Shown here: positions 4,871 to 49,192 of the stretch, in pieces
How positions within the stretch are numbered: the stretch's first letter is position 1
Layout of the letters: every line of letters starts with the position of its first letter
Origin: Nitrospirota bacterium
Lineage (GTDB): Bacteria; Nitrospirota; UBA9217
NCBI GenBank assembly: GCA_035623825.1
Contig: DASPSR010000061.1
Coordinates: forward strand, 1 to 64,000
Reading direction: 5' to 3'
DNA: 64,000 bases
Position numbers and translations under genes: made by a program
The notes under the pieces: generated by a model
The model's input: the letters and a program-made list of their open reading frames with translations, nothing else
Databases searched by the model: none
What the model was told of the DNA's origin: nothing

Positions 4871-4878
4871 TTATCAAA

Positions 4879-5538: not shown

Positions 5539-5593
5539 ATCATAGCGTGGCATTGTTACGTCATAGTTACGGCACGATGAAGATATGGTTACA
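5539..5593 (-). promoter_or_regulatory. Pho-box-like array plus -10, overlapping the GH1 stop codon
   Basis: Minus strand: TGTAACC-atat-CTTCATC-gtgc-CGTAACT-atga-CGTAACA-(9 nt)-TATGAT. Confidence 0.7.
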
Positions 5594-9195: not shown

Positions 9196-9371
9196 GATCA
9201 TGAGCCGGATGATGATATTTGATGTTGGGCCTGATCGCAAGGAAGATGCCGGCCTGTAAGTCCCGTTGCAGCGGGTTTTTTAAAGCTTGCGTATATTTAC
9301 AATACATTAGTATTATATTTATAGGGTCACGATAAATGCATCTTTCATTATAAATATCGCAATGTTTTGCC

Positions 9372-12323: not shown

Positions 12324-13613
12324 ATGGCGTCCAGAGAATATCCCTCCAAACTGTTTGTCGAAGTGACCACCCTGTGCAACCTCCAGTGCGGCATGTGCGT
12401 AAAGCAGAGCGGCATTGGCGGGATTCCCGAGGGCATGATGTCGCCGGAGACTTTCGAGCGATTGAGCCCCGTCTTTCCACATCTTGATTCTCTCGTGTTG
12501 AACGGCATCGGCGAGCCCCTGCTCCATCCGCACTTGGAAACGTTCATTGCAAGAGCGCGGTCCCTCCTTCAGGAGCAAGCCGTGGTCGGATTTCAGTCGA
12601 ACGGCATGATGTTGAACGATCAACGGGCCGCGTCGCTTGTCGGCGCGGGGCTTGACCGCATCTGCCTCTCTCTCGACACAGTGTCCGATAACAGTTTCCG
12701 CTCCATCAGGACAGGCGGGGAAATGCAGGGTATCGTGGCAGCGTTCGCGAGTTTGAACAAAGCCAAGTCGCGGCGCGGGAGAAGCGACCTAAAGATCGGG
12801 ATTGAATTCGTGCTGATGCGTGATAATCTCGCCGAGCTGCCCGAAGCAATCCGCTGGGCCGGCAGGGCAGGCGCAAGTTTCGCCATCGTTACCCAGCTGC
12901 TTCCTTACGACGGAGAACTGGTCGTGCAGACAGCCTATGACACCAATACAACCGCCGCCATCGCCATCTATGAAAAGTGGAAGACAAAGGCTTCGAAGGA
13001 AGGCCTTGATATCCGCCGGTATCTCGAAGTTTTCATGAAGGTCGTCAAGACCGCGGAGGAAGAGCGGATCATCGGTTTTGTCGAGAAGATGAGGAATGAC
13101 GCAGAGGCACAGGGCGTAACCCTCCATGTAGAACGGCTGCTAAAGCGAGACGAGGAATGGTTCGCTGACGCCGCCAGTGTTTTCGATGAGGCGCGCCGGG
13201 CCGCCCGGGAGGGAGGAGTCGAACTGACGCTGCCCGGCATGGCACCACGGAATACGAGAAAATGCGAGTTCGTAGAGGGGAAAAGCGCGTTCGTTTCATG
13301 GGACGGCAATTTGCATCCCTGCTACTTCCTCTGGCACCGCTACTCCTGCTATGTTGGAGGAATCGAAAAGCGTGTGAAACCGTGGGTCATCGGCAGCCTG
13401 CACGATCGAGACATTACTACCATCTGGAACGATGAGGGCTCCCGCTTGTTCAGGGAGCGCGTACTCGGATACCGGTTCCCGTTCTGTTTTGACTGCGGTT
13501 TCGCGCTTTGCGATTATGTCGGTGAAGCGGACTTTGAGCAGGATTGTTATATCGAACAGGTCCCCTGTGGATCCTGTCTCTGGTGTACCGGCTTGTTTCA
13601 CTGCCTCCAGTAA
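12324..13613 (+). CDS. Radical SAM/SPASM putative metalloenzyme maturase
   Basis: CNLQCGMC, GIGEPLLHP, Cys-rich SPASM tail (CEF...PCYF...CFDCGFALC...CGSCLWCTGLFHC). Confidence 0.88.
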   Translation: MASREYPSKLFVEVTTLCNLQCGMCVKQSGIGGIPEGMMSPETFERLSPVFPHLDSLVLNGIGEPLLHPHLETFIARARSLLQEQAVVGFQSNGMMLNDQRAASLVGAGLDRICLSLDTVSDNSFRSIRTGGEMQGIVAAFASLNKAKSRRGRSDLKIGIEFVLMRDNLAELPEAIRWAGRAGASFAIVTQLLPYDGELVVQTAYDTNTTAAIAIYEKWKTKASKEGLDIRRYLEVFMKVVKTAEEERIIGFVEKMRNDAEAQGVTLHVERLLKRDEEWFADAASVFDEARRAAREGGVELTLPGMAPRNTRKCEFVEGKSAFVSWDGNLHPCYFLWHRYSCYVGGIEKRVKPWVIGSLHDRDITTIWNDEGSRLFRERVLGYRFPFCFDCGFALCDYVGEADFEQDCYIEQVPCGSCLWCTGLFHCLQ

Positions 13614-23539: not shown

Positions 23540-23680
23540 GATAAATTAGAAACGCTAGCATAGCCCAGTCAAAACGAATGTGTTCCTGAAAGGTTGACGC
23601 TGTAGGTAAGTAATGAAAGATGCGGTAGACACTGATATTGTATGAAGATAATATAATTGAATTAGAAAGGAGATCATTGT

Positions 23681-23971
23681 ATGGCGCTCATCGAAGATGG
23701 TTTGAAAGGCAACCTCGCTACTGGACTGGCTATCGGTATTGGCGCAGCTATATTGGCGCCGGTGGTAATTCCTCTGTTTTCCAATATCTCTAAACCATTG
23801 GCAAAAGCCGCAATAAAAGGAGGCATCCAGCTCTACGAACGCGGCAAGGAAGTCTTGGCTGAGGTCGTTGAAATTACTGAGGATATTGTCGCTGAAGCAA
23901 AGGCCGAACTGGCTGAGTCAACCGCTGCAGAAGCATCGGTGGCAGCCGAGGCAGCACTTCCGAAGAGTTAG
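23681..23971 (+). CDS. DUF5132-like protein (GxxxG hydrophobic helix plus amphipathic helix)
   Basis: TGLAIGIGAAILAP...KPLAKAAIKGGI...EDIVAEAKAE; AAGGAG SD. Confidence 0.8.
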   Translation: MALIEDGLKGNLATGLAIGIGAAILAPVVIPLFSNISKPLAKAAIKGGIQLYERGKEVLAEVVEITEDIVAEAKAELAESTAAEASVAAEAALPKS

Positions 23972-24489
23972 TGAGACATGTTATGATTCCTGATGCCGTC
24001 ATTGCCCATGCATCAAGAGGGAGATTGCGCATCAAAATACCCTCTCAAAGGGGTAAACTGGTTGCGCTTAAGTCTTATGGTGACCAGTTTGCCTCATGTC
24101 CAGGTGTTCTCTCTATTGAGGTGAATCCGGCAACGGGCAGTATGCTCTTGATACACCAAACAACCTTGGCTGAAATTGCGGAATACGCACGGTCCAAGAA
24201 CCTTTTTATCTTGAAAGAGCAGAAGAGTCCAAAAGAACCATCAGCAGGTCTTCGTGGCGATATTGGAAAGACGTTCAAGAGCCTTGATCGACAGATTCAG
24301 AGCCTTACGGATGGCGATCTGGACTTGAGCGGATTTACGTTTGCAGCATTAATTGTAGCGGGCACAGCGCAAATTCTTTCAGGGAACGCAGGACCTATAC
24401 CGTGGTTTGCCGCATACTGGTATGCGTTCCACCTTTACTCGAGGACACAAGAGGGGGAAAAGAAGCAGGGTCAACAGGACCGGGAGTAA
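23971..24489 (+). CDS. HMA2-domain membrane protein (FezC-like architecture)
   Basis: HASRGRLRIK...EVNPATGSMLL (Cys-free HMA2) plus a C-terminal hydrophobic segment PWFAAYWYA. Confidence 0.8.
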   Translation: MRHVMIPDAVIAHASRGRLRIKIPSQRGKLVALKSYGDQFASCPGVLSIEVNPATGSMLLIHQTTLAEIAEYARSKNLFILKEQKSPKEPSAGLRGDIGKTFKSLDRQIQSLTDGDLDLSGFTFAALIVAGTAQILSGNAGPIPWFAAYWYAFHLYSRTQEGEKKQGQQDRE

Positions 24490-24650
24490 CAGTAACGGGA
24501 GTCTTTCAGGTATATCCGCTTGCCAGTTAGCAAAGTAGTGAGCACCATACAATTCTTTCCTTACTGAAAATCCGATCCCAATGGAATCAGAATTACCATA
24601 AAGCATAAGGGAGCATGTTATGTTTAGTGCACCTTAACAGGAGAAACGCC

Positions 24651-25373
24651 ATGAGTGACAGAAAAAAGAAAACTCCGATGATTCAGACCGAGAAGCAAAG
24701 TCCACGCAGCAGAGCGACAGAAGAGGCTCAGGCTGTCACTGCGAAAATGAAAGGAGAAACAGATATGGCCAGCGCAGAGACCACAGGCAGTAGAGTGTCC
24801 GCAGAAGAGATCGGCAAAGCAGGAACTACAGTGAAAGAGGGTGTCGTCAGTAGTCTCAAGGGGATAAACGAGATAGAGGCGGAGATCGTCAGCCTAGTCA
24901 GAAATACCGTATCCAATACCCTCCGAGCAACGGGCTCGGTCGCCGGCGAGGCTGTCGGCGTCACGAAGGACGTGATAAAGGGCGCCATTCAGGCCACGGA
25001 AGAGGTCGGCACAGGGCTCATCTTGAGCACCAAGAGCGTTGCAAAAGGGGTAGTGATGGGCGTGAGCGACGTGGGCGGCGATGTTATTTCCGTTGCGGGG
25101 TCTACCGTGAAGGGTGCCGTAAAGGGTGCGGCAGAGATCGGCGCGGATGTTGCCATGGTTGCGCGACGGGCAGTCGACGGTGTGATCGAGGCCACCAAGG
25201 AAGTGGGGGGGAACGCTGAAGAGGTTGCGAAAGTCGCCGTGAACGGCGCTATTGATGCAGCATCTTCGATCGGCAATACGGCGGTCAAGGCGGTCAAGGA
25301 CATGCTCGTAGGCGTTGTTGAAGGAGTGAAGGAAGTCGCCAGCACCGCATTACCGAAGGCCAAGCAGGCCTGA
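24651..25373 (+). CDS. Ala/Val/Gly-rich protein with eight 22-aa amphipathic repeats
   Basis: Repeats such as TKDVIKGAIQATEEVGTGLILS and TKSVAKGVVMGVSDVGGDVISV; two in-frame starts (24651, 24765), each after AGGAGAAAC. Confidence 0.8.
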   Translation: MSDRKKKTPMIQTEKQSPRSRATEEAQAVTAKMKGETDMASAETTGSRVSAEEIGKAGTTVKEGVVSSLKGINEIEAEIVSLVRNTVSNTLRATGSVAGEAVGVTKDVIKGAIQATEEVGTGLILSTKSVAKGVVMGVSDVGGDVISVAGSTVKGAVKGAAEIGADVAMVARRAVDGVIEATKEVGGNAEEVAKVAVNGAIDAASSIGNTAVKAVKDMLVGVVEGVKEVASTALPKAKQA

Positions 25374-25420: not shown

Positions 25421-28400
25421 GTGCCTGTGGTCCAGGCCGTTCATACCTCTGTAAAAGGACGGGCCCGTTATAAGGTGGAGGGTCTGTATCGCTCGGAATC
25501 CCTGAAGCAGCAGATCGAGCAACATCTTGCGCAGCACAAATGGATCCTGAGCGTATCAGTCAATACACTGACGGGTACCGTCTTGGTGCTTTTCGATTCG
25601 CAGAACGGCAATCGTGCGTCATCGATAGCTTCTCTCCTTGAAACCCTAATCGAACGAAGCAACAGCAGCCTGCTTCCAGGGAAGGAAAGCCAGGCAACTG
25701 TTTCCCAGCATAGTGAAAGAAAGAATGCCGTTCGCTCAGAAGCCACTGCGGTCCCCCCCCGAACTCCCGCCGGCAAAGAAGTGCTAAGCCTGCATACCGT
25801 TCGTAAGCAAGTCTCCCATGCCGAGGAGCAAAAGGACGAAGCTTGGCATTGCATGTCAAAGGGAGAGGTGCTTCAGAGATGGGGTACCTCAGCGTCAACA
25901 GGCCTATCCGAGGAATCAGTCCGTCTTCTATTCAACCAGTACGGTCCAAACCTTCTCCCAGAATCCGTTCCCCGCTCGGGATGGAGCATCTTTTTCGATC
26001 AGTTCAAGTCCCTGCCAGTGGCCATGCTCAGCGTATCCGCTGGCATTTCTGTTGCCACGGGCGGATTTGCCGATGCCGTGGTAATCATGGCTGTGGTCGT
26101 CATTAACGCATCGATAGGGTATGTCACCGAGAGCCAGACGGAGAGGACCATTCAAGGGCTGAAGAACCTCGTGCAGCCTTCCGCTATTGTGGTTCGCAGC
26201 GGGGTCATGTCGACCATCGATGCAAAGGATGTCGTGCCCGGCGACCTGCTTGTGTTAAGACCGGGAAGCTATGTCTCGGCGGACGCCCGTCTCATTGAGG
26301 CGAAATATCTGAGCATTGATGAGTCTGCGCTTACGGGCGAAAGCATGCCCGTCATAAAAATCACTGACAAACTGGAATTGGCGGACATGCCCCTTGCCGA
26401 TCGGACGAATATGGTATATATGGGCACCCTGGTCACCGGAGGACAGGGTCTTGCCATCGTGGTGGCAACGGGGAAGTTCACCGAGGTCGGAAAGATCCAG
26501 ACCCTGGTCGGAGAGGCGCGGCCGCCCGATACGCCCCTAGAACGGCAAATGGACAGATTGGGAGTCCAGCTAGTCTATGTCACGTTGGGCGTATGCGGAA
26601 TTGTTTTCATTGTCGGGATCCTAAGGGGTTACGGTTTTCTTCAGATGCTCAAGTCCTCCATCGCTCTTGCCGTGGCCGCCGTCCCGGAAGGACTGCCTAC
26701 CGTTACAACGACGACCCTTGCGCTCGGCATCAGGCGCATGCGTGACCTTAAGGTGCTCATCCGTCACCTAGACGCCGTTGAAACACTTGGCTCGGTCGAG
26801 ACCATCTGTCTCGATAAAACCGGCACCATCACCATGAACAGGATGTCGGTGGTCCAGGTCCATGCCGGCTCTCGCCGCTTTGATGTCGTTGACAGCAGGA
26901 TCAGGTCGGATGGTAAGACGGTCAATCCCTATACGAATGAGGATATCCTCCGTCTGATTCACCTGTCCGTTCTCTGCAACGAATCGATGGTATCAGGCTG
27001 TGAAGGCGAGTATGTCGTTGAAGGTTCATCAACGGAGAACGCGCTCGTTCATTTAGCGCTCGGTGCCGGAGTGGATGTCAATTCGTTGCGGGCTCAGCAT
27101 CCCTTGATTAAGATGACCCATAGGTCGGAGGACCGGCATTACATGAGCACACGTCACGGGTCGAATGACGGCGGCCAACTCCTGGCCCTCAAGGGAAGCC
27201 CCTCGGACGTGCTCTCGCTGAGCAAATGGTACATGAAGGATGGAAAGCAACTGGAGCTGGACGACACCGCCCGTGCTGTCTTCGAGGCCGAAAATGAGCG
27301 TATGGCCGCCGAGGCGCTGCGGGTGCTCGCCGTTGCGTTTGCAGTCAACGATGGCGCCACGTTACGCACTGATGAGATTATCCAGCAAGGACTGATCCTG
27401 GTCGGGCTCATCGGGATGGCGGACGTGGTCAGGAGCGGCGTCAAGGATCTCATCGATATGTTCCACCGAGCTGGGATCGATACGGTCATGATCACCGGGG
27501 ACCAGAGCCCCACGGCATATGCAATCGGCAAGGAACTCAATTTGAGCAATGGGAAAGAACTCGAGATCCTGGACTCAAGCAATCTTGCCCGTATCGAACC
27601 CGATGTCATGAAGGCGCTTGCCGGACGTGTCCATGTTTTCGCTCGCGTCAGCCCAGCCAACAAGCTCCAGATCGTCCAGGCCCTCCAGTCGGCGGGTAAG
27701 GTCATAGGCATGACCGGCGACGGCATCAATGACGGACCGGCTCTGAAGGCGGCCGATATAGGTATCGCAATGGGACACACGGGCACTGATGTCGCGCGTG
27801 AGGTTGCTGATGTGGTCCTGGAAGATGACAATTTAGAGACCATGGTCGTGGCCATAAGCCAAGGGCGGACGTTCTACAATAATCTGAGAAAATCGGTCCG
27901 GTACATGATTTCCAAGAACACGGGCGAGATAATGATCATGTTCACGGCACTGGTGGCCGGTTTGGGACAGCCGTTCAACGTCATGCAACTGCTCTGGATT
28001 AACATGATATCGGACATCTTCCCCGGCCTCGCTCTTGCTCAGGAGCCGCCTGAGCCGGATGTTCTCCTGCGGCCCCCTCGCGATCCCGACGAACCGCTCA
28101 TCAAGACCAGCGACTTCAAGAGACTGCTCTTTGAAGCGTCTACCATCTCGGCGGGGACCCTTGCTGCTTATGGCTACGGGGTTCTCCGCTACGGCCAGGG
28201 CCCCCAGGCAAGCACGATGGCCTTTACGAACTTTGTCACGGCAGGCCTCCTGCACGCGATCAGCAACCGCTCCGAGACCCACAGCATCTTTGACGCTGAA
28301 CAGCTTGCACCGAACAAGTACCTCAATATTGCCCTGACGGGCTCACTGGGGCTGCAGGCCATGACCTTGATCATTCCGGGCCTCAGGAACTTCCTGGGGA

Positions 28401-28570
28401 TGGGTGTGCTGGGACCCTTGGATCTGGTGGTGACCATGGGAACAGCCGTCGCGCCCCTGCTTATCAACGAAGCGACCAAAAAGGCTGCCGCTCCTCTGCC
28501 GTTGCTAAATGGCAGTGCGGCGGTCCCGGTTACCGCTCTGAATAACAGTCAAATTGTCGCAGCTCTTTGA
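25421..28570 (+). CDS. P2-type cation-transporting ATPase with N-terminal HMA2 domain
   Basis: TGES, VPEGLP, DKTGT, TGD, GDGINDGPAL and QLLWINMISD motifs; N-terminal GRARYKV...SVNTLTGTVLV. Confidence 0.92.
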   Translation: MPVVQAVHTSVKGRARYKVEGLYRSESLKQQIEQHLAQHKWILSVSVNTLTGTVLVLFDSQNGNRASSIASLLETLIERSNSSLLPGKESQATVSQHSERKNAVRSEATAVPPRTPAGKEVLSLHTVRKQVSHAEEQKDEAWHCMSKGEVLQRWGTSASTGLSEESVRLLFNQYGPNLLPESVPRSGWSIFFDQFKSLPVAMLSVSAGISVATGGFADAVVIMAVVVINASIGYVTESQTERTIQGLKNLVQPSAIVVRSGVMSTIDAKDVVPGDLLVLRPGSYVSADARLIEAKYLSIDESALTGESMPVIKITDKLELADMPLADRTNMVYMGTLVTGGQGLAIVVATGKFTEVGKIQTLVGEARPPDTPLERQMDRLGVQLVYVTLGVCGIVFIVGILRGYGFLQMLKSSIALAVAAVPEGLPTVTTTTLALGIRRMRDLKVLIRHLDAVETLGSVETICLDKTGTITMNRMSVVQVHAGSRRFDVVDSRIRSDGKTVNPYTNEDILRLIHLSVLCNESMVSGCEGEYVVEGSSTENALVHLALGAGVDVNSLRAQHPLIKMTHRSEDRHYMSTRHGSNDGGQLLALKGSPSDVLSLSKWYMKDGKQLELDDTARAVFEAENERMAAEALRVLAVAFAVNDGATLRTDEIIQQGLILVGLIGMADVVRSGVKDLIDMFHRAGIDTVMITGDQSPTAYAIGKELNLSNGKELEILDSSNLARIEPDVMKALAGRVHVFARVSPANKLQIVQALQSAGKVIGMTGDGINDGPALKAADIGIAMGHTGTDVAREVADVVLEDDNLETMVVAISQGRTFYNNLRKSVRYMISKNTGEIMIMFTALVAGLGQPFNVMQLLWINMISDIFPGLALAQEPPEPDVLLRPPRDPDEPLIKTSDFKRLLFEASTISAGTLAAYGYGVLRYGQGPQASTMAFTNFVTAGLLHAISNRSETHSIFDAEQLAPNKYLNIALTGSLGLQAMTLIIPGLRNFLGMGVLGPLDLVVTMGTAVAPLLINEATKKAAAPLPLLNGSAAVPVTALNNSQIVAAL

Positions 28571-28597
28571 GCGCGCGCAGCTCGCGGAGAGGTCCAC

Positions 28598-29797
28598 ATG
28601 AAAAAAGACTTTATGTTCACCTCGGAATCGGTCACAGAAGGCCATCCAGACAAGCTCTGCGACGTCATCAGTGACGCCATTGTTGATCATGTGCTCCAGA
28701 AGGATCCCTACGCCAATATCATCGCCGAATGCGCCGTTTCCACGGCTATCGTTTTTATCGCTGCCAGATTCGCAACCGTTGCCAACGTGGATTATGCCAA
28801 TGTGGCCAGGCAGGTAATCAGCCAGGTTGACTACGACCAGGCGGCCTTCAATGCGAAGACCTGCAGCGTGATCACGAGTCTCAAAGAGGTTCCGAAGGAG
28901 AGGCGGCTCCCAGCCGATGAGCGCAGCATGACTGATGAAGAGATCGAGCGTGTCACCGCCAAAAATCAGGTTACCGTGTTCGGATTCGCCTGTAATCAAA
29001 CGGCGGCCTTCATGCCGCTTCCGGTCTGGCTGGCCCACCGTCTCGCCCGGAAGCTCACAGCCGTGCGACTGCAGAAGACGCTCACTTACCTTGCCCCCGA
29101 TGGTAAAACCCAGGTGGGGATTGAATATCGGGCCGGCAGGCCGTATCGCGTGCACAGCGTCACCATCATTGCGAGCCAGAAACAGTCTGCTGACAGAGGC
29201 GGACCTGATCTCGAAAGGCTTTCAGAGGATATCAGGGAATCAGTTTTGCAGCCAGTATTCCAGGACGAGGAGATTAAGCCGGATGGAGCGACGCGGATAT
29301 TCATCAATCCCGATGGTGCCTTCATAGGTGGTGGTCCCGCGGTACACTCGGGACTGACGGGAAGAAAGAATGCAATCGACACGTATGGTGAATATTCCCG
29401 CCACAGCGGTGCAGCGCTGAGCGGAAAAGACCCCTCCCGGATCGACCGGATCGGCGCGTACGCTGCCCGCTACGCAGCCAAGAATGTGGTTGCCGCCGGG
29501 ATTGCCAAAGCCTGTGAAATCCAGCTCAGTTATTCCATAGGCCTCGCACGGCCGGTGAGCATCCAGGTGGAAACCTTCGGGACCGGCGAAATGCCTGATG
29601 AAAAAATAGCCGACATTGTGGAAAAAAATTTCGATTTCCGGCCAGAGGGGATCGTCCGTCAGTTCAACCTGCGACAACTCCCCTCTGCAGTGAAAGGCGG
29701 ATTCTATCGGAAGCTCGCGGCATACGGTCAGATGGGAAGGATGGATATCGGTTTGCCGTGGGAGTTGACTGACAGGGCGCCCCGCTTGAAAGGGTAA
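28598..29797 (+). CDS. Divergent MetK (SAM synthetase)-family protein
   Basis: FTSESVTEGHPDK, PDGKTQV, GLTGRK, SGKDP and AYAARYAAKN retained; GAGDQG replaced by TAKNQV. Confidence 0.88.
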   Translation: MKKDFMFTSESVTEGHPDKLCDVISDAIVDHVLQKDPYANIIAECAVSTAIVFIAARFATVANVDYANVARQVISQVDYDQAAFNAKTCSVITSLKEVPKERRLPADERSMTDEEIERVTAKNQVTVFGFACNQTAAFMPLPVWLAHRLARKLTAVRLQKTLTYLAPDGKTQVGIEYRAGRPYRVHSVTIIASQKQSADRGGPDLERLSEDIRESVLQPVFQDEEIKPDGATRIFINPDGAFIGGGPAVHSGLTGRKNAIDTYGEYSRHSGAALSGKDPSRIDRIGAYAARYAAKNVVAAGIAKACEIQLSYSIGLARPVSIQVETFGTGEMPDEKIADIVEKNFDFRPEGIVRQFNLRQLPSAVKGGFYRKLAAYGQMGRMDIGLPWELTDRAPRLKG

Positions 29798-29929
29798 GGG
29801 GGGCATCATGTCTGACAATATGGCGAGTGATGCGTTCAGGGCGCGAACTAAGCGAACGGAGGTTGGCGCAGCGTGATGGTTTGCATCATGTGACCATACT
29901 GTCAGTCTGGCGCGAGGGGGGATTACAAC

Positions 29930-30190
29930 GTGAACGGACAGACCTTAGATGATAATGAGAAACAGAAGCGTAATCACCGACTTGCTATCGAGAACGTGGC
30001 GCAGGACCTTCAGTGCTCCAAAGAGAGTGTAATGACATTGTACGAGATCGTGTTGACGCGTTATATGCGAAAAGCCAGGATCAAGGATTTTGTTACGCCG
30101 CTGGTCATCAAACGCGTCAAAGAACTGCTTAAAGATGATACACCCCCATCTACCCTGGAAGGCAGGAGAAATCGTAACTCAGAATTTTGA
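29930..30190 (+). CDS. DUF3562-like small three-helix protein, copy 2
   Basis: HRLAIENVAQDL...LYE...ARIKDFVTPLVIKRVKELL; GAGGGGG SD; paralog of 22634..22861. Confidence 0.7.
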   Translation: MNGQTLDDNEKQKRNHRLAIENVAQDLQCSKESVMTLYEIVLTRYMRKARIKDFVTPLVIKRVKELLKDDTPPSTLEGRRNRNSEF

Positions 30191-30382
30191 TCATGACCGG
30201 AATGTTTCGTGAAAGCTGTCTTGACCGGGGTCTGAAACAGGTTGCGTTCTTGACATCATAAGGTTCGGAATCACTGCCAGTGGATGAAATAACGAAATAA
30301 AGGGAAGGGAATAATGAACCGTAGCTCCTGGAGAATCGTCGAAACAGGAGGGCAAGTGTAGATCATCTATCTGTCTGTTAGA

Positions 30383-30754
30383 TTAGAGCAATATAGCCAA
30401 GAATGACAATCCGGTTCCTTCGAGAGCGCTTCCAATAAACGCTCCAGTGACGGCTCTGGTCATCGCGTTATATGCCTTAGTTGTTGCTTGATGGATCACC
30501 TGATCATTGGTGATCGTTTTGTCGGGATGGTAGAAACCTACCCTCTCTAGAGCGCTCAGGATGTCCTGATGATTGATCTCCTTGGGATTGTAGTTGATCA
30601 AGAGACTGCCGGTAGTCGTATTGAAATCAGCTGTTCCGATACCATGTCCCATGTTCACGAGAGCCTTTTGTACATCATAATGAACCGCGCTGTTCTTGAA
30701 TAACGGATTTTTGATACGTAATCTGCCCGGAACGTTATGCACGTAATGGTTCAC
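30383..30754 (-). CDS. HMA2-domain protein with C-terminal GxxxG-like anchor
   Basis: YVHNVPGRLRIK...FNTTTGSLLINY; tail GAFIGSALEGTGLSFLAILL; AAGGAGG SD. Confidence 0.8.
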   Translation of the reverse strand: MNHYVHNVPGRLRIKNPLFKNSAVHYDVQKALVNMGHGIGTADFNTTTGSLLINYNPKEINHQDILSALERVGFYHPDKTITNDQVIHQATTKAYNAMTRAVTGAFIGSALEGTGLSFLAILL

Positions 30755-31037
30755 CAGGTAAGCCCTCCTTAAAAGAGATTTTAGTATATCCCTTGCAATT
30801 GGGGTAATCTGAGCACCTGAAGCGCATCACATGCGTTTCCCGCCTGTACACATGCATCGAGAGACCGCATGAGGGACACGTCGGTCGAGTTTTCGGTTCA
30901 AGGCGTTTAGAGCCGAGAAGAAACTGTCTGCCGCACATTATGCATTTGTAGCGTTGCCTCCCGTCATGCACATGACCATATCTATACAGCGCTTCTGAAC
31001 TACAAGCCGGGCATCTGTACGCGATCGCCGTTGCCAT
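30735..31037 (-). CDS. Double Zn-finger protein (InsA-like ribbon plus C4 finger), copy 2
   Basis: CPACSS...GRQRYKCIMC and CPSCGLSM...FRCSDYPNCK; GGAAGG SD before ATG 31037. Confidence 0.8.
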   Translation of the reverse strand: MATAIAYRCPACSSEALYRYGHVHDGRQRYKCIMCGRQFLLGSKRLEPKTRPTCPSCGLSMHVYRRETHVMRFRCSDYPNCKGYTKISFKEGLPGEPLRA

Positions 31038-31061
31038 AGTGTTTATCCTTCCCATGAAAAA

Positions 31062-31116
31062 ACAATACACTACATATGTTACAATTGTGTTACAACATAG
31101 TTAAATTTTTGTTACA
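31062..31116 (-). promoter_or_regulatory. Pho-box-like array (4 heptamers) plus -10
   Basis: Minus strand: TGTAACA-aaaa-TTTAACT-atgt-TGTAACA-caat-TGTAACA-(9 nt)-TATTGT. Confidence 0.8.
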
Positions 31117-31943: not shown

Positions 31944-33701
31944 TTAATTTAAATAGATTTTTGCCTTCGTTCCTTTCCCATGCGTGCTTTCGATCTTAAT
32001 ATCCCAGCCGTGCGCTTTCACGAGGTGTTTCACGATCGCAAGGCCGAGGCCGGTTCCCCCCATGTTCCGCGAGCGGCCCGGATCGACCCGGTAGAAACGC
32101 TCGCCGAGCCTCGGCAGATGTTTTTGCGGGATCCCAATGCCGGTATCTACTACGAATAAATAGATCCTTCCGTTTTCGTTTGCGTCTCCAAACGTTACAC
32201 TGCCCGTTTCGGTGAACTTGATAGCATTGTCCACGAGGTTGGTTAGAATCTGGATGAGCCGGTCCCGATCGGCTTCAATGGTTCTGGGCTCAGGAAGGAC
32301 CTGCGTTTTGATCGCAAGGTTCTTTGCCTTAGCCTTGTCCCCAAGCACAGTCAAGACGTGCTCCGTGACATCCTTTATATCGACGCTCGATTTTTGAACC
32401 TTGATGACGCCCAGTTCGAGTTTCGAAATAGTCATAAGATCATCCACAAGACTGTTGATCCGCTCGCTGTTGGCCTTGATGGTCTGCAGAAATTTGACGG
32501 CATGATCGCGGTCATCGATAGCGCCTTCCAGCAGCGTATCGGCAAAACCTTGAATGGCGGTGATCGGGGTCTTTATCTCGTGGGAGATGTTGGCGACGAA
32601 ATCCTTTCTGGTCTGTTCGAGCCTTTTCAGCTGTGTGATGTCATGGAATATGGCGACAAACCCTGAGAGTTCCCGTTCGGTATAAAAAAGAGGGGATACC
32701 TGGACGACGCAATGCTGCTCCAGGGGAGAATCGATCGTTATCTCGGCGCTGGCTGCCCTTTCTTCCTTCCGCACCGTTTCCATGAGCGACAGGAAATCGC
32801 TGCTCCTGACGACCTCGATGAAGGGTTTTCCCTGGAGAGCGATGTCGCCAAACAGTTTTCTCGCCGCGACGCTGGACAGCATGATCATGCCCTTTGCATC
32901 GATGATGAACAGGGCATCGGGAATGTTCCTGAGTATCATGCTCAGGCGATGCTGTTCCTCCTCATGGCAGACTATGCTGTTTTTAAGTTCCTCGGACATT
33001 GCATTAAGGCTCTCGGCAATCTCGTCGAACTCTCCCGCACGGCTAAGAAACAGTTTTTTACCGACTTCGCCTCGGGAAAGTGATCTGGCAAAATCCCTAA
33101 TCTGCCGCGTTAGCTTCCGGATATGTTCCATTTGCCAAAGCAAGAAGATGCCGGTAGCCAAAAGGACAGAAAAGACAATGGAAAGGATCTTGAACCTGAG
33201 GATGTTAATCGACGCATCGACGTCTTTGAGCGGAATGCTTAGGCGGATGAATCCTTCAGGGCCTGCTCCTCTCTCGACTTTGATTGCGACATAGAGGAAG
33301 TTATATTTCATGGTGTCGCTGAACCGGATGGCATTGCCCGTACCGCTCAAGGACGCCTGCTGGATCTCCTGCCGGTGCCCATGATTGTCCATAAGTGAAG
33401 AATCATTATCAGAGTCGCCGATGACCCTTCCGTTGAGTGCAATGAGCGTGACCCGTGAGCCCGTCCTTGCCTTGAGCTTTCGGCAAAGGTCATCGAGGGG
33501 CGATGGCGCGTTCAAGGATATGGTGCTTGAGATGAGGTTCGCCTGAACAGCGAGGTTGTTTTGAAGACCCTCGACATATCTCTCCCGGACCGCGCTGGTG
33601 ATGAACAGTTCGGTAATAAGCGCCGCAAGGATCATGATGATTGCATAGATGATGAAGATCCGCCGAAAGATACTCGGCTTATGAATGTGGTTATTCGACA
33701 T
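31944..33701 (-). CDS. phoR: Phosphate regulon sensor histidine kinase (2 TM, HAMP, PAS, HisKA, HATPase)
   Basis: MDNHGHRQEI periplasmic motif, RKDFVANISHEIKTP, RFYRVDPGRSRNMGGTGLGLAIVKH; overlaps the phoB end. Confidence 0.85.
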   Translation of the reverse strand: MSNNHIHKPSIFRRIFIIYAIIMILAALITELFITSAVRERYVEGLQNNLAVQANLISSTISLNAPSPLDDLCRKLKARTGSRVTLIALNGRVIGDSDNDSSLMDNHGHRQEIQQASLSGTGNAIRFSDTMKYNFLYVAIKVERGAGPEGFIRLSIPLKDVDASINILRFKILSIVFSVLLATGIFLLWQMEHIRKLTRQIRDFARSLSRGEVGKKLFLSRAGEFDEIAESLNAMSEELKNSIVCHEEEQHRLSMILRNIPDALFIIDAKGMIMLSSVAARKLFGDIALQGKPFIEVVRSSDFLSLMETVRKEERAASAEITIDSPLEQHCVVQVSPLFYTERELSGFVAIFHDITQLKRLEQTRKDFVANISHEIKTPITAIQGFADTLLEGAIDDRDHAVKFLQTIKANSERINSLVDDLMTISKLELGVIKVQKSSVDIKDVTEHVLTVLGDKAKAKNLAIKTQVLPEPRTIEADRDRLIQILTNLVDNAIKFTETGSVTFGDANENGRIYLFVVDTGIGIPQKHLPRLGERFYRVDPGRSRNMGGTGLGLAIVKHLVKAHGWDIKIESTHGKGTKAKIYLN

Positions 33702-34395
33702 AGTAGCCAACCCCCCTCCGGGTCCTGATATATACAGGATTAGAGGGGTCATTTTCAATCTGGGTCCTCAGCCGTCGTATGTGCACATCAACGGTCCTCG
33801 GTTCAACGTAGGACTCGTCCTTCCAGACAGCGTCGAGCAGCTGTTCACGGCTGAAGACCCTGCCCTTTCTCTCGGCCAGAAACAGGAGTAATTTGAACTC
33901 TGTTGCGCTGAGGTGCAAGGGGGCATCAGCCTTGGTCACCTGATAGGTCTCTGCGTTGATACGCAGATCGCCGATGTTAATGACCTTGTCCTTCGTCACG
34001 CCTTCGCCGGTCCTTCGGAGGATGGCCTTCACTCGCGCAACGAGCTCCTTTGGACTGAAGGGTTTTGCCATATAGTCGTCGGCGCCGGTTTCGAGGCCGC
34101 GTACCCTGTCCGATACTTCACCCCTGGCGGTCAGCATGATGATGGGGATGGCTTCTGTTTTTGGATTGCTCCTGAGCATGCGGCAGAGCTCAACGCCCTG
34201 GATGCCCGGGAGCATGAGATCGAGGATGATTAGGTCAAATTGCCCCTTGCGGACCTTTTCGAGAGCATCCTCGCCGTCAGGGGCAGTGAAAACTTTAAAA
34301 CCCTCTTTTTTGAGATTATATGAGACTAGTTCTACGAGATCAGGTTCATCATCCACTACCAATATCTTTCTTGCATTCATACTGAACGTCCTCAT
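33691..34395 (-). CDS. phoB: Phosphate regulon response regulator (OmpR family)
   Basis: Receiver motifs VVDDE, LDLMLP and KPF; recognition helix RTVDVHIRRLR as in PhoB/PhoP. Start may be 34380. Confidence 0.85.
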   Translation of the reverse strand: MRTFSMNARKILVVDDEPDLVELVSYNLKKEGFKVFTAPDGEDALEKVRKGQFDLIILDLMLPGIQGVELCRMLRSNPKTEAIPIIMLTARGEVSDRVRGLETGADDYMAKPFSPKELVARVKAILRRTGEGVTKDKVINIGDLRINAETYQVTKADAPLHLSATEFKLLLFLAERKGRVFSREQLLDAVWKDESYVEPRTVDVHIRRLRTQIENDPSNPVYIRTRRGVGYYVE

Positions 34396-34670: not shown

Positions 34671-36764
34671 TCAATGCCCCAAGGTGTCGCCGGTGACCTC
34701 CCAGATCTGATAAATGGGGCTGTAAAGAACAAGGGGTTGAAAGTACTTCCTGTCCGGTTGGTGCCGTACAAAGAGCTTATGGAACACTGAGTTGGTGAGC
34801 TCCGGGAGCGTGAGCACTGCTAAACGGCCTGGGAAGAAGATGTCCAATTCAGACCCCGACTCTCGGTACTTCTGAGTACCTTCATATATCATATTTCGGA
34901 AAAAGGCCTGGCTCAAGTTGACCTGACTCGAGCTGACCGTGGCAATCCCAATTTGCAGGTCCGCCTCTAATCCGCCTCCGCTTATATTCTGATCCGTGCC
35001 ATTCACCTCCTGAAAAACGAGGTAAGGTGCCACGTCGTTCCTCAGATGCCCAGGACGCCAAGTGCCCGGACGGTACCAGCCATCAAACGAACGCAACAGG
35101 CTGAATTCAAGAAAGAGAAAAATCCTTCGGTTAGATTGCGGAAAGAGGAATGACTCCCAAGATCGGCTACCGGCCGGAGGCTCTTGCAATCCTGCGGTTG
35201 CAATGATTTGACCGGCTTTGGAAGGACCTGCAGCCAGGGCTTCTATTAATGTGTCAAACTTCTTGGCTGGTCCCCCCGATCGCGCCCAAAAATCTATCAG
35301 CCCCTGCTCTCCCCGGTTCGCGTAAAATTGGATCCAATTCGCAGCCAGTCGAAAATCATCAGTGGCAAAAGGAATTGCATTGGCCACCACTGCCTGTCCG
35401 TTCCCGCCAATGCCTCCGTCCGCAACAGGTGTCCTTCCCGACTCATAGGCGACGGGATAGCCCACGCTCCAACCGCACCAGATCAAAGAGCCCTCGGGTG
35501 TGAGTTTTCCCACCTTCGCGATCCCCTCCATGATCTGCGGATCAACATAGGGCCAGATAACGCCGACGGGGATTTGATTGATTAAAACCAGACCGGTTAT
35601 TACTCCGGCGGCGGCGGGATCGGCCCAACGCCAGGGGGAGGCAGCGAAGCGTTGCCATACCTCGGATACAAGGACTCCTGAGCCGAGTGCCAGGAGGGGA
35701 GACAAAAAAATTATAAATCGCTGCCCCGTAAAGAATATCAAAACCCCAATCGAGGCGAGGGGCAGCAGTACGATCGCGTCGCGCCACTTTTTTCGCAGAA
35801 TAAGCACTACGCCAAGAACTCCAACCAGGAACCCGACAACGCTGCCGCTTGTCATGCGCGCAATGTAGGTGAAATCATGCTTCTCCAATTCCGACAGAAA
35901 AAGGGATGGGCTTGGAAACGGGCTTTTTTCGCGGACAAAGACAACATCAGAGAGAATTTTGATCTGCTGGAGCAAGCCTGATACTCCATAGATCGCGATC
36001 GCGGCAGCCAGAATGATCCCCGATGAAAAAAGCAGCCACAATTTCCTCCTGTTGAGTGATCCTTCAGAGGTTATTAGGGAGAGGACAATAGGTACGACTG
36101 AAAGGTACACGACCATAATAGCATTGGTATCCCAGGACCAATAAAGCAGACAGCCTAATCCAGCCAAAAAAGTCGAGAACAACAGCACTTTTGCCATATC
36201 GCGCTCACGAATACGTAATGATGCCCAGGCAATCCACAAGCTCAATGGGACTATCAGACAGTCGGTATCATAAAACGCGAATCCTGACCGGTACACCCAG
36301 AGAGGGGCCATAGTTCCGATTAGGCCGGCGAAAGCGCCTGCAATCCAGCTACCTCCAACATCCGCTGCAAGGAGATAGAGCGGGATTGCCGCCGATGTTC
36401 CGAGAACAACAGGTATCCAGGCGGCACACCATTCAAGGGACACCCCAGTCACCCTTGACAACGTAGCAGCGAGTAACGAAAGGAGAGGCGACAAATACGG
36501 AAACGGTTCCGGATCGTTGGCGACGACATCAGATCGGCCGGCTTTTCTTTCGTTCATATCCCTCGCCAGGCCCAGATAGTGATAACCGTCGCATTCTCTT
36601 AAAACCGGCGACCCTTTGTAAAAAGCCTGTTCCGGGGCCTTCTCCCAGGCATGCCAGACGGATGCTCGCTGTCCGGCTCCCGCAGCCAAAATTCCGATAA
36701 GACACAGAACAGGCAGCGCTCTCTGCAGGAGAAACGTTCCAGTGAGGTCACTTTTCTTTATCAT
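34671..36764 (-). CDS. STT3/PglB-like GT-C glycosyltransferase (oligosaccharyltransferase-like)
   Basis: DGYHYL, YRSGFAFYDTD, SELE, QRFIIFLSP, IWCGWSVGYP...TPVADGG; about 11-13 TM segments plus a periplasmic domain. Confidence 0.8.
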   Translation of the reverse strand: MIKKSDLTGTFLLQRALPVLCLIGILAAGAGQRASVWHAWEKAPEQAFYKGSPVLRECDGYHYLGLARDMNERKAGRSDVVANDPEPFPYLSPLLSLLAATLSRVTGVSLEWCAAWIPVVLGTSAAIPLYLLAADVGGSWIAGAFAGLIGTMAPLWVYRSGFAFYDTDCLIVPLSLWIAWASLRIRERDMAKVLLFSTFLAGLGCLLYWSWDTNAIMVVYLSVVPIVLSLITSEGSLNRRKLWLLFSSGIILAAAIAIYGVSGLLQQIKILSDVVFVREKSPFPSPSLFLSELEKHDFTYIARMTSGSVVGFLVGVLGVVLILRKKWRDAIVLLPLASIGVLIFFTGQRFIIFLSPLLALGSGVLVSEVWQRFAASPWRWADPAAAGVITGLVLINQIPVGVIWPYVDPQIMEGIAKVGKLTPEGSLIWCGWSVGYPVAYESGRTPVADGGIGGNGQAVVANAIPFATDDFRLAANWIQFYANRGEQGLIDFWARSGGPAKKFDTLIEALAAGPSKAGQIIATAGLQEPPAGSRSWESFLFPQSNRRIFLFLEFSLLRSFDGWYRPGTWRPGHLRNDVAPYLVFQEVNGTDQNISGGGLEADLQIGIATVSSSQVNLSQAFFRNMIYEGTQKYRESGSELDIFFPGRLAVLTLPELTNSVFHKLFVRHQPDRKYFQPLVLYSPIYQIWEVTGDTLGH

Positions 36765-36794
36765 GTGTGTCCTTTCTTTTTCTCCCTAATGCTC

Positions 36795-37849
36795 TTACAT
36801 GGGAAAAGCAGGAACTCCTTGCTTTTGGAACCTGACCAGATAGAGCAAGATCAGCATTGGAACCAGATACTGTCCGATAACGACCAATGCGAGGTCAGTC
36901 TTCTGTAGCATTGTGAAATGAAACAAAGCCATAAGCGCATTGTCGATTCTATGAAACAGATGGATCAGAAACAGGACGCCGATGCCGCTCCAAGGAGACG
37001 GATCCTTTGTCGCCAGGGTATCGAGGAGGCGGCAAGAACCAGAGAGACGGCGATGACGATACTGAAGGTTTCATAGTACACCGCGGTTTCGTGCGCAAGC
37101 CCTGCAGGACGGCCGAACAGGGATAATCCGAAGACCATCAGCCGGTCAAGGAGCAGTATATATCCATGATTAAGCCTGAGCCAGACCAGGAATACGATTG
37201 ACGAAATCAATCCAAAGCGGGTCAGCAAACCCGTCGTGTCCGGTGACGAGCCCTCCCTTGTTCCACACCTCTCGGCAGATCTCATCCAGAGGATGCAGCA
37301 TGAGAGCACAAGAAGCAGGGTAAATACCTGACCAAGATATACGTGGGTCACATCAAAGAGCCGGATGTCATATCGGCTTATGACGAACGTAGCCACCAGC
37401 CGGAACACGTTGCCTAGATACAATACGGGGATTCCCCAAGCCAGGGCCGTCCCCTTTTGCCGCCACGATGAAGGATGAAACGCCACAAAGCAAACGAAAA
37501 GGATTGACGCGAAAATGGGCGTGCACTCAGGAATGATCCGGACAGCCAGTCCATTTTCTGAAACCACGTCGCCGGCAGTCGAAGCGGTAAAGCCCATGGC
37601 ATTCAGTACCAGACCAAGCATGGAGGCGGTATGTTCGTTAAAGGGTCTTGTAAACGACGACGGCAGCGCGTGAATGAGCGCATAGAGGCCGATACAGGCA
37701 AGGGTGAAGGCCGCGATTGCACGCAAACGGCCATAACGTGCCGCCTCCAATACGGTATTGTCCGGTGCATCCTCTCTGATGACGAGTGCCCTTTTTTTGT
37801 CGCGACGATGTCTTGATTTTCGCTTACCCATTATCGTCCTGGGGGTCAC
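36795..37849 (-). CDS. xrtH: Exosortase H-like protein with a C-terminal membrane extension interrupted by a 1-nt frameshift near 36987
   Basis: Catalytic triad IPECT / GNVFRL / THVYLGQ; adjacent IPTL-CTERM substrate. The ORF stops at 36965 but another frame continues GIGVLFLIHLFHRIDN...IGQYLVP to TAA 36795. Confidence 0.75.
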
Positions 37850-40298
37850 GTTTATTTCTCTGCCTGCTCCTGCCCATAATCGCTCCCAGCGCGGCGACAG
37901 CGATCAGCATTCCCCAAGTCCCGAGCGCTGGCACAGTATTTATGCTGAACGTAGCCACGATTGTATGATTTGCCGTAACATCCGTGATGGTATAAGTCCC
38001 CTTAATGACGCTCGCAGTCACGTCAACACCGTTGTCCGTTAACGAGGACAGATGATACCCTGCGTTTGCGGTAATAGTCAAGAGCACACTACCCCCGCTC
38101 GCGACCGACGCCGTGGCGGGGGCGTCGGTCCCTCCACCGCCACCGGCGACCGACGAGGTAATAGTGAATGTCTGGGGTATGGTAAGAGTTATCTGGGCTG
38201 TATGGGTAAAACTGCTGCCTGTGCCGGTGACGACCAAGGGAAACGTCCCTAGAGGTGCAGAAGCGCCAACCGTGAGGTTCAGCGTCGAGCTTCCTGACCC
38301 GGGCGAAGCGATCGGGTTCGGACTGAAAGCCGCTATCACACCGGCTGGGAGACCTGAAATGGACAGGGATACGGCATTATTGAAGTTGCCGAGAACGGTC
38401 GTGGTGATCGTTGATGTTCCCGCTGCGCCTTGGGTAACGGAAAGTGTGGTGGCTGACGCGGTGACGGTGAAGTCCGGTGTCCAGTTCATAACGAGCGAGT
38501 CTGCATCCACTGAACCAAGTCCCGTTGCAAGATTATATCCTGCTGCGGCAGCGTATCCAGTAACGCCAGGCACCGTGTTGTTTCCTGATGTGATATCATG
38601 AAAGACCGGTACTCCGCCCGATGCATACTGGGCATTGCCCAGCTGGTACAGCCGGGTGTTCGCGTTGCCTTGGCGCTGGCCAGCCCTCTGCACGACAAGC
38701 GTCATGAGTCCGGCAAAGGCAGGAGCTGACGCCGAAGTCCCCCTGACGGCATGGAGCGACCCCTGTGTTTCGACCAGATAGGCGTCATGGCCCGCCGCGT
38801 TAAGCGATACGTCAGGGACATTGCGACTGTTATTCGCGGGCACACCAGGCGCCACCTGCCACCCAGGCTGGACGTACAGCGAGGAAGCGCCTCCTCCGGT
38901 AGCCCACAACCCGGAACCGCCTGAAACACTGCCGCTCTCGTTCCAAGCGATCTCTGGTATATAGCTAAATGCGGACGAATATCCCGCACCGTTCGTTGTG
39001 CTCCAGTAACTGCCCCCCCCTTCATCGAACTGCGTGCCGCCGACGGCGACATTATACGGCGTGGAAGCAAGCCCGTTCACGCCAAGGCCCGTTCCGCTTG
39101 ATGCCGATGGTGGGTTGCACCCAGCTGCACCGGAATCGCCCGAGGAAACAAATGCCGTGATGCCCTGGGCAGCGGCTTGCTGCCATAGATTATTGTAAAA
39201 AACGTTCTCCGCCGTTCCCAAAGCCGACTCGCACGAACCGAAGCTGATGCTCATCACAGGGGCCAGGTTGTTATTTACGATATACTGGGCAGAAAGGTCC
39301 ACACCATCGGTTGCCACAGTCGACTTCGATACAACGAATAGAATAGCGGCGTTCCTTGCCACGGCCCCGGACCATTCAACATCGAGGTCGGCTTCTGTAT
39401 CCTCGTCTGCGCCCAGATCGCCGGGGTCAGGGCCGTTCACGATCACCTGGGGAGGATTGGAGGGCAGTCCCATCATGCTACGGAAGGTCGTCCAATTGGT
39501 GCTGGACGGGTGTGTGCGGCCCACGATGGCGACCTTCTCGCCGCTGCCGTCAATTCCCGCGGCATAGAGCCCATTGACATCGTATACGGTGGCGAAGTCC
39601 GACGGGGATATATAGTGAGTTGAGCCAACCGTGTACTGAGGAGCTTTTCCGGGCAAAGCGGCGGGCATGACACCTCCGTTCATCGCTACGCGGGGAAAGT
39701 CGTGCAGGGTGACGATACCCGCCACCACATCCGACAGCCCCCTCGGGATACTCGGGTCCTGAGCGTTGGCATGATGCATCCGGCCGTTTACAAAATATGT
39801 ATGTATCGAGGTGTGGAAGGCCCGGTTAACGTCCCCGGCGGTGCCGGAGAAGTTGATCCAGGAGCCGCTCCGTGCAACTTCGCTAACTTTAAATCCGTAG
39901 GATCTAAGCCAGCCTGTGATGGCATCGATATCGGCAGCTGCAACCCCGAAACGCGTCCCGAACTCTTCCGGCGTCAGCCAATGATGGAAGTTGGATGATG
40001 CCGGGTCATACAGCCCGGCAAGGTACCGTTCGAGCTCAGCCTGTTTTCGGGGATCCCGGCGCAATGCAAGGATCATCAGCTCCATGGGCAAGGACGACGG
40101 CGCCGCTCCCCTGTCGAATTCGGCCCGTGCGTAGGGGTGCACGTTCCCGTGCAAGGTCACCCTGTCATTGTCGTCGATGATGCGGGCTGGGCGCGCAAGG
40201 GCCGGTGAAACTGCAAGAAGAATAAAAGCCAAGGTGAATATCACGAAGAAACTGATTCCCCTCGGCTTCTGTGTAAAGCGCTTTTCCGGTTTAGTCAT
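37824..40298 (-). CDS. S53 (sedolisin/kumamolisin) protease with pro-domain, Ig-like modules and IPTL-CTERM sorting signal
   Basis: Signal peptide; WLTPEEFG pro-domain; EADLD, SSGDSG and GTSASAP motifs; tail VPALGTWGMLIAVAALGAIMGRSRQRNKR. Confidence 0.92.
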   Translation of the reverse strand: MTKPEKRFTQKPRGISFFVIFTLAFILLAVSPALARPARIIDDNDRVTLHGNVHPYARAEFDRGAAPSSLPMELMILALRRDPRKQAELERYLAGLYDPASSNFHHWLTPEEFGTRFGVAAADIDAITGWLRSYGFKVSEVARSGSWINFSGTAGDVNRAFHTSIHTYFVNGRMHHANAQDPSIPRGLSDVVAGIVTLHDFPRVAMNGGVMPAALPGKAPQYTVGSTHYISPSDFATVYDVNGLYAAGIDGSGEKVAIVGRTHPSSTNWTTFRSMMGLPSNPPQVIVNGPDPGDLGADEDTEADLDVEWSGAVARNAAILFVVSKSTVATDGVDLSAQYIVNNNLAPVMSISFGSCESALGTAENVFYNNLWQQAAAQGITAFVSSGDSGAAGCNPPSASSGTGLGVNGLASTPYNVAVGGTQFDEGGGSYWSTTNGAGYSSAFSYIPEIAWNESGSVSGGSGLWATGGGASSLYVQPGWQVAPGVPANNSRNVPDVSLNAAGHDAYLVETQGSLHAVRGTSASAPAFAGLMTLVVQRAGQRQGNANTRLYQLGNAQYASGGVPVFHDITSGNNTVPGVTGYAAAAGYNLATGLGSVDADSLVMNWTPDFTVTASATTLSVTQGAAGTSTITTTVLGNFNNAVSLSISGLPAGVIAAFSPNPIASPGSGSSTLNLTVGASAPLGTFPLVVTGTGSSFTHTAQITLTIPQTFTITSSVAGGGGGTDAPATASVASGGSVLLTITANAGYHLSSLTDNGVDVTASVIKGTYTITDVTANHTIVATFSINTVPALGTWGMLIAVAALGAIMGRSRQRNKRDPQDDNG

Positions 40299-48957: not shown

Positions 48958-49192
48958 TGTCGCTGAAAATATTCGGCTTAGGATCAGCGATTGCAATCCT
49001 CGATTATATACAGGACTTATGCGTCCTGTATTAAAGGTATCAAGAAAAATGGTTTATCCGATAAGCAGTTTTCCGGTCCGGTCTGTCGCCGGACTGGGAT
49101 GATATCGTTTGTACTCCAGGAGTGATCGGTTCCAGGCCGCGACTGCGGATTCGACTGACGTCATCCGCGATGGAATCCTTGGAGGGGAAAAT

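Follow-up and report, generated by a model that had tools for sequence, protein, structure and literature searches.

A MetK-like paralog with replaced methionine ligands accompanies a calcium-type P-type ATPase in Nitrospirota, Desulfobacterota and cyanobacteria

S-adenosylmethionine (SAM) synthetase, also known as MetK or methionine adenosyltransferase (MAT), is among the most conserved of enzymes, and we know of no MetK paralog for which another function has been described. Here we consider a MetK-like paralog encoded by positions 1 to 64,000 of contig DASPSR010000061.1 (assembly GCA_035623825.1, from a Nitrospirota bacterium of the lineage UBA9217), a 64,000-nucleotide stretch that we call the window. 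Its open and intact reading frame stands at the end of an operon that encodes, in order, a small DUF5132 protein, a CoBaHMA membrane protein, a repeat protein, a P-type ATPase and the paralog itself, with a gap of 27 nucleotides between the ATPase stop and the start of the paralog and with a conserved 18-mer in front of the first gene (Table 1). The paralog retains the side chains by which MetK binds triphosphate and metal ions, whereas its methionine ligands are replaced, and both this pattern and the company of the ATPase gene are shared by a family found in three phyla.

By sequence the protein is a full three-domain homolog of MetK. The N-terminal, central and C-terminal domains of the MAT fold are all matched (PF00438, PF02772 and PF02773, E 4e-32 to 4e-56), the score against TIGR01034, the NCBI equivalog model for metK, is 375.8 bits with a cut-off of 309.4, and the best solved relatives are bacterial MetKs (E ~1e-95). 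An AlphaFold2 model of the monomer, built with 32 family members in the alignment, has a mean predicted local distance difference test score (pLDDT) of 71.9, which is moderate, with low confidence in two stretches, residues 93-104 and 241-274. Superposed by Foldseek on solved structures, among them MAT2A and E. coli MetK (PDB 1fug, 7ll3), the model gives TM scores of 0.73-0.81. The paralog resembles bacterial MetK (EC 2.5.1.6) in its three-domain fold, in an identity of about 40-48% and in its triphosphate and metal residues, but differs in its methionine ligands, motifs and gating loop, in forming a separate clade, in always standing behind a P-type ATPase gene and in coexisting with canonical MetK.

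Residues were compared in a MAFFT alignment to E. coli K-12 MetK, taken from its genome record (locus L040, 6707-7861), the mature-protein numbering of which is used throughout. A first alignment comprised the window protein, E. coli MetK, seven relatives and nine canonical MetKs from related genomes, and in a wider comparison 81 members of the paralog family, chosen by the pattern H[SA]GLTGRK, were set against 106 canonical MetKs. The window protein retains H14, D16, E42, D163, K165, F230, R244, K245, K265 and D271, and carries the substitutions E55R (in FIAARF), Q98V, D118N (in TAKNQV), D238H (in VHSGLTGRK) and K269R, which correspond to R57, V98, N123, H250 and R281 in its own numbering. 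A preliminary description of this DNA had listed eight of these residues as kept (all but D163 and F230) and the same five as changed, and alignment to the recorded E. coli protein bears out every one of them.

The substitutions are traits of the whole family. E55R, K269R, F262L, V270I and A274G are each present in 81 of 81 members and D118N in 71, with D kept in 8; D238H is also found in 81 of 81, by construction only, as this motif was used to select the set, and Q98 is replaced by a hydrophobic residue across the family. By comparison, the columns of E55, K269, F262, V270 and D118 are 99-100% E, K, F, V and D in the 106 canonical MetKs, and the four columns holding the methionine or SAM ligands (E55, Q98, D238 and K269) are 99-100% E, Q, D and K, a set of ligands that the paralogs lack. 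The side-chain ligands of triphosphate, Mg2+ and K+ (H14, D16, E42, K165, R244, K245, K265 and D271) are kept in at least 90% of the 81 paralogs, H14 in all 81 of these pump-linked proteins, and F230 is mostly kept. Overall, of the 149 columns with a conservation of 90% or more in the canonical MetKs, 94 are kept in the family, all the triphosphate and metal side chains among them. Further changes affect T227 (D or E in 77/81), R229 (P, A or Q) and G117 (K, R or T), and positions 99-106 of the gating loop are without conservation. Two motifs that we take to be signatures of MetK, GAGDQG and GGGAFSGKD, are both altered, whereas G115, A116, G117, D118, G120, G258 and G260 are 100% conserved in canonical MetKs. 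The first reads T/P-A/V-K/R-N-Q-V in the family, and the second, the glycine-rich phosphate loop, carries G258S, G260S/A and F262L, so that HGGGAFSGKD has become HSGAALSGKD in the window and SG(S/A)ALSGKD in the family. The earlier statement that the triphosphate site is kept is therefore correct for its side-chain ligands, but not for the glycine-rich loop.

What these replacements might mean can be judged from the human enzyme. According to the excerpted text of PMC6850014, the methionine nitrogen is bound in human MATa2 by Glu70 and Asp258 and its oxygen by Gln113, and Asp258 additionally contacts the ribose O3'. These residues are the equivalents of E. coli E55, D238 and Q98. The same excerpt reports that patient mutants, including Asp258Gly and changes of Lys289, lose SAM formation with their phosphatase activity unaffected (PMC6850014). 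The MAT1A and MAT2A mutants at D258, K289 and Q113 thus resemble the paralog in that the same positions are changed, and in them SAM formation is lost and tripolyphosphatase activity persists, but they are loss-of-function point mutants, while the changes in the paralog are fixed, charge-reversing and family-wide.

The family is broad, and apparently unstudied. Searches of 41 related genomes with TIGR01034 separated the matches by score into canonical metK, at 582-610 bits, and the paralog, at 365-387 bits. The lower-scoring class is present in the window's own assembly (G000) and three others of its genus (G001-G003), in three assemblies of the same family (G004, G014 and G017) and in G034. 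A scan of one genome per species gave 80 loci, of 68-83% identity, in Nitrospirota, Desulfobacterota, many Nostocales (which are heterocystous) and other cyanobacteria, complete genomes of cultured strains being among the carriers. Such identity over three phyla reflects strong purifying selection, and the paralog is more conserved than the neighbouring ATPase (69% versus 53%, window versus Nostocales). Close members are also abundant in metagenomes, where JGI and NCBI name them 'S-adenosylmethionine synthetase' or 'methionine adenosyltransferase', a database name which is probably wrong. An exhaustive profile-free search added distant members of 42-57% identity, which share H238 and R269 and vary at positions 55 and 118. 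Of 80 metagenome loci fetched with an alignment of these distant members, 77 hold canonical metK and 3 are of the H238 type, and the context of the high-GC members P0122 and P0131-P0136 was not revealed; the ESM Atlas entry for the distant member P0134 leads to generic MAT clusters only. A tblastn search of plasmids returned canonical metK only, all 188 records being below 60% identity.

A quick maximum-likelihood tree was built from 52 rows, 26 of the paralog type and 26 canonical MetKs. The split between the two types has 100% support in the Shimodaira-Hasegawa-like approximate likelihood ratio test (SH-aLRT), and a pump-linked core of 19 rows, which includes the window protein and in which the phyla are intermixed, has 98%. 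A recent duplication inside Nitrospirota is rejected by this tree, which places the paralog family as the sister group of all the bacterial MetKs sampled, with the phyla mixed inside the family. The tree and alignment of the clade called for in the preliminary description thus yield a separate, deep paralog family with shared residue changes. The window gene belongs to it in every respect, as it has R55, H238 and R269 with intact triphosphate ligands, lies downstream of a CoBaHMA-fused ATPase and falls inside the clade. A literature search on MetK paralogs with P-type ATPases, D118N/D238N, FUPA families and DUF5132, which did not extend to supplements, brought up nothing relevant and no publication on the family.

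The pairing with the ATPase is invariant. All 74 loci in which the upstream flank reaches 3.2 kb or more have an ATPase gene on the same strand whose 3' end is no further than 400 nucleotides upstream of the paralog, and in many loci the pair overlaps at start and stop. Where the flank is short the ATPase is seen in four of six, the remaining two beginning inside the paralog itself, and it is also present in both of the H238-type metagenome loci that have flank. None of the 77 canonical metK loci from metagenomes, which serve as a negative control, has the same ATPase beside it; one has an unrelated P-type ATPase, 27% identical, 3.5 kb away. The genome of Chlorogloeopsis fritschii PCC 6912, a cultured cyanobacterium, holds a second ATPase-paralog module (Table 1) in addition to its module with the DUF5132 gene. 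Contigs from 4/4 RNA-seq runs compared, from four studies, cover the latter. In three of the four runs one contig of 6.9-7.4 kb, without differences, extends from about 100-130 nucleotides before the DUF5132 gene through the ATPase and the paralog, which speaks for expression, although contigs from RNA libraries neither prove a single transcript nor rule out DNA carry-over. Around a cyanobacterial paralog (locus L093), two intergenic stretches (7947-7979 and 9253-9320) have very high depth and match many other RNA contigs, and are probably dispersed small repeats. We regard the link between the paralog and the adjacent pump as strongly supported, and the two may be functionally coupled. A complex prediction for two copies of the paralog with ATPase residues 1-200 scored 0.00, the fold of the ATPase partner being uncertain, and weighs neither for nor against such a coupling.

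The ATPase contains Cation_ATPase_N, E1-E2, HAD and Cation_ATPase_C domains together with an N-terminal HMA_2 domain (PF19991). It is closest to the PMR1- and SERCA-type calcium pumps, although its scores are under the NCBIfam equivalog cut-offs (631 versus 798), and its best solved relatives are the P2A calcium pumps SPCA1 (PDB 8iww, E 1e-151) and Listeria LMCA1 (PDB 6zhf, E 9e-140). Its PEGL motif and the N...D of transmembrane helix 6 (TM6), which we take to be calcium ligands, align with those of SPCA1. The window pump differs from SPCA1 and LMCA1, however, in its extra N-terminal CoBaHMA domain and its obligate MetK-like gene partner, as well as in scoring below those cut-offs. PF19991 corresponds to the domain called CoBaHMA in work on calcyanin, and CoBaHMA and DUF5132 families, which surround the window pump, also occur next to ccyA (calcyanin) in Microcystis aeruginosa PCC 7806, where they are candidates for a role in intracellular CaCO3 formation (10.1101/2024.07.07.602159, accessible portion). 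The same portion of that text mentions neither adenosylmethionine nor P-type, and none of the annotated open reading frames (ORFs) of the window is a calcyanin gene.

Wherever the assembly is contiguous, carriers of the paralog have a canonical metK as well. Both genes are present in 5/5 contiguous genomes (three chromosomes of cyanobacteria and two Nitrospirota assemblies whose contigs reach megabase size), where the canonical copy scores 537-599 bits, and both also occur in G004, G014 and G017. The preliminary description had held that the protein is not a SAM synthetase, and had looked for a canonical copy elsewhere in the genome. Such a copy is found in these relatives, although not in G000 itself, and the claim is supported by comparison, through the ligands replaced family-wide, the human mutants and the coexisting canonical metK, rather than by assay.

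We favour, with moderate confidence and on the basis of sequence comparison, the reading that the paralog is a neofunctionalised MAT-fold enzyme, which would have kept triphosphate chemistry, dropped methionine, gained a cationic acceptor pocket and come to work with the pump. We infer that SAM synthesis has been lost and catalysis retained. Taylor and Markham reportedly found for the E. coli enzyme that D118N and D238N affect SAM formation far more strongly than tripolyphosphatase activity, and that C5'-O5' cleavage needs H14; if this is right, the conservation of H14 would indicate that adenosyl-transfer chemistry is kept, beyond the hydrolysis of tripolyphosphate alone. In such a mechanism the paralog would bind a nucleoside triphosphate with Mg2+ and K+, and would cleave or hydrolyse its chain by means of H14, D16, E42, D163, K165, R244, K245, K265 and D271. 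The methionine pocket would have been rebuilt from acidic to basic by E55R, D238H, K269R, D118N and the exchange of G117 for K, R or T. The enzyme could then split ATP at C5'-O5' or hydrolyse tripolyphosphate, and the adenosyl group might pass to water or to an anionic acceptor other than methionine; alternatively, the protein may be a (tri)polyphosphate or ATP phosphohydrolase only. It would act as an obligate cytoplasmic partner of the putatively co-transcribed, CoBaHMA-fused calcium-type ATPase. Neighbours of the operon are a PhoB/PhoR-like two-component system and an OlsF-like gene for the synthesis of a lipid without phosphorus, and a link to phosphate or calcium handling may exist.

Within the reading as a neofunctionalised enzyme we give roughly equal weight to a triphosphate or ATP hydrolase, to adenosyl transfer to an anionic acceptor and to nucleotide-dependent regulation of the pump. 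The suggestion that the enzyme supplies phosphate to the adjacent pump finds no support, as a P-type ATPase obtains its phosphate from ATP itself. More tentatively, and as a possibility that we think doubtful in its full form, the paralog could be the first enzyme of the MAT fold to carry out another reaction, in which C5' of ATP is attacked by water or an anionic acceptor in the R55/H238/R269 pocket and tripolyphosphate is released. This reaction would be coupled to a calcium-type pump in a hitherto undescribed CoBaHMA/DUF5132 membrane system for cations and phosphate, which gene transfer would have carried between Nitrospirota, Desulfobacterota and cyanobacteria.

A number of observations weigh against the neofunctionalised enzyme. 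The confidence of the monomer model is low precisely at the active-site loop (residues 241-274), the glycine-rich phosphate loop is altered at three positions, K165 is missing in some distant members, so that activity may have been lost in parts of the wider family, and the protein still scores above the NCBI cut-off for metK. Moreover, the retained H14, F230 and D163 would be equally required by a working adenosyltransferase, and a methionine-like substrate held differently is compatible with the data. With regard to phosphate, the PhoB/PhoR-like neighbours are absent from the cyanobacterial loci, which leaves the link to phosphate starvation as one of adjacency only, and a genome search with the 18-mer upstream of the operon gave only two relatives with three mismatches, neither of which precedes a recognisable phosphate gene (their neighbours are an MntP-like gene and an unknown one, and a DUF1579 gene and an aspartyl-protease-like gene).

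The distribution of metK within the genus also belongs on this side. The paralog is the only bacterial-type metK match in G000 (89.65% complete, 67 contigs), G002 (99% complete) and G003, and an archaeal-type MAT (PF01941) was searched for in G000 and not found. The preliminary description had regarded a sole metK as refuting its claim, and formally this is the situation in G000. However, the canonical metK of the sister genome G001 is followed immediately by ahcY, a gene that is truncated by the start of a contig in G000 (C42, positions 1-818, residues 147-418 only) and by a contig end in G003 (C39). The canonical gene would then have gone unseen in G000 and G003 because the assembly gap falls beside ahcY, its neighbour in G001. 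This explanation is direct for these two assemblies only, as G002 has no ahcY either, and it seems that the metK-ahcY region assembles or bins poorly in this genus. In addition, the canonical metK of G001 (locus L039, 5974-7133) is split by one frameshift near 6639-6672 and one TGA, which could be genuine or an artefact of long-read assembly. The window itself encodes a radical SAM/SPASM maturase of the TIGR04311 'Geo_metal' type (12324-13613, plus strand, 592 bits), adjoining an aldehyde-ferredoxin-oxidoreductase-like gene, which indicates that the organism needs SAM.

Other explanations of the family have to be considered. P2-type pumps commonly have regulatory partners, and the paralog might be a dead pseudoenzyme that serves the ATPase as a regulatory or scaffold subunit sensing nucleotides or polyphosphate. 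The invariant pairing, the altered glycine-rich and gating loops and the loss of K165 in distant members would agree with this; nevertheless, all the catalytic side chains, including H14, are kept in 81/81 members at about 70% identity across phyla, which is unusual for a pseudoenzyme, and we consider it unlikely. We give less credence still to a functional isozyme of SAM synthetase that would be produced along with the pump under some stress and would bind methionine in an altered way. Such an isozyme would pass the TIGR01034 cut-off (375.8 bits against 309.4), would keep H14, D16, K165, K265, D271 and mostly F230, and would account for a sole metK match in three short-read genomes of the genus. 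In 81/81 members, however, both acidic ligands of the methionine amino group have become bases (E55R, and D238H by selection) and Q98 is hydrophobic, the equivalent human mutants lose SAM synthesis (PMC6850014, excerpt), and canonical metK coexists in the 5/5 contiguous genomes and three family members, with the window's missing copy falling at a contig break. Finally, since MAT active sites are built from two subunits, mixed oligomers of the paralog with canonical MetK could tune SAM synthesis, which would suit their coexistence and the 94 of 149 conserved columns in common, yet would leave the invariant linkage to the pump across phyla unexplained, and this we hold to be very improbable.

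Were the paralog a neofunctionalised enzyme, it could possibly offer new adenosyl-transfer or triphosphate chemistry, and it would provide a handle on the function of the CoBaHMA/DUF5132 pump system, the more so as its carriers include cultured, genetically tractable cyanobacteria. It would also mean that SAM synthesis inferred from the annotation 'methionine adenosyltransferase' can be wrong.

Table 1. Features of the paralog locus in the window, and a second module in a cyanobacterium (aa, amino acids)
Feature	Position	Strand	Length	Remarks
Conserved 18-mer GTAGGTAAGTAATGAAAG	23602..23619	+		Identical or near-identical in 9/9 upstream regions aligned among close relatives; may be a site for a regulator
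Promoter-like TAGACA-17-TAATAT	23626..23654	+		Adjoins the 18-mer; conserved in relatives
Small DUF5132 protein	23681..23971	+	96 aa	First operon gene; below the 100-aa ORF filter
CoBaHMA (PF19991 HMA_2) protein	23971..24489	+		C-terminal hydrophobic hairpin; GTG start overlaps the stop of the preceding ORF
Ala/Val/Gly/Lys-rich repeat protein	24615..25373	+	252 aa	Matches no family; in Nitrospirota and Desulfobacterota loci it is conserved ahead of the ATPase gene
P2A-type P-type ATPase	25421..28570	+	1049 aa	N-terminal CoBaHMA/HMA_2 (PF19991) at residues 6-64
Shine-Dalgarno-like GGAGAGG	28587..28593	+		5 bases before the start of the paralog; read from the sequence
MetK-like paralog	28598..29797	+	399 aa	ATG start
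Second small CoBaHMA (HMA_2) protein	30383..30754	-		Conserved near the module in Nitrospirota
Zinc-ribbon protein	30735..31070	-		Accompanies the second CoBaHMA gene
PhoR/PnpS-like histidine kinase and PhoB-like response regulator	31944..34395	-		375.4 bits (cut-off 400) and 287.7 bits (cut-off 296.2)
Second ATPase-paralog module, Chlorogloeopsis fritschii PCC 6912	L206, 3635-8542			D118 kept in its paralog; ATPase as two ORFs (3635-6520, 6510-6830)

The operon varies between the phyla, as cyanobacterial loci consist of a minimal three genes, for a DUF5132-hairpin protein, the ATPase and the paralog. A promoter scan gave 6 sites overall with 5.0 expected by chance, and the promoter-like element of Table 1 therefore rests on its conservation in relatives. 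The histidine kinase and response regulator are both just under their cut-offs and are taken as context only; several genes of this surrounding, to which the OlsF-like synthase also belongs, reappear close to the module in further Nitrospirota. A Pho box, or control of the operon by PhoB, was considered and is not shown, no clear copies of the 18-mer standing before Pho genes elsewhere in the genome.

In relatives, the paralog is followed directly by a gene for a CDF cation-efflux protein of about 300 aa, its CDF identity being confirmed for one locus only (L035, 9213-10121). This gene is absent from 29797-30383 of the window, where 133 nucleotides separate the paralog from a small DUF3562 ORF (29930-30190). 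At 922-6848 the window encodes an OlsF-like ornithine-lipid synthase, an HpnI-like glycosyltransferase, a PHP-type metallohydrolase and a GH1 glycosidase, and several further Nitrospirota loci have homologs of these genes next to the pump module. Further along, genes for an STT3-like oligosaccharyltransferase, an exosortase-like protein and an 824-aa protease of the pro-kumamolisin type stand in a row on the minus strand (34671-40298), and a single ORF of 3542 aa occupies 49109-59737 on the plus strand.

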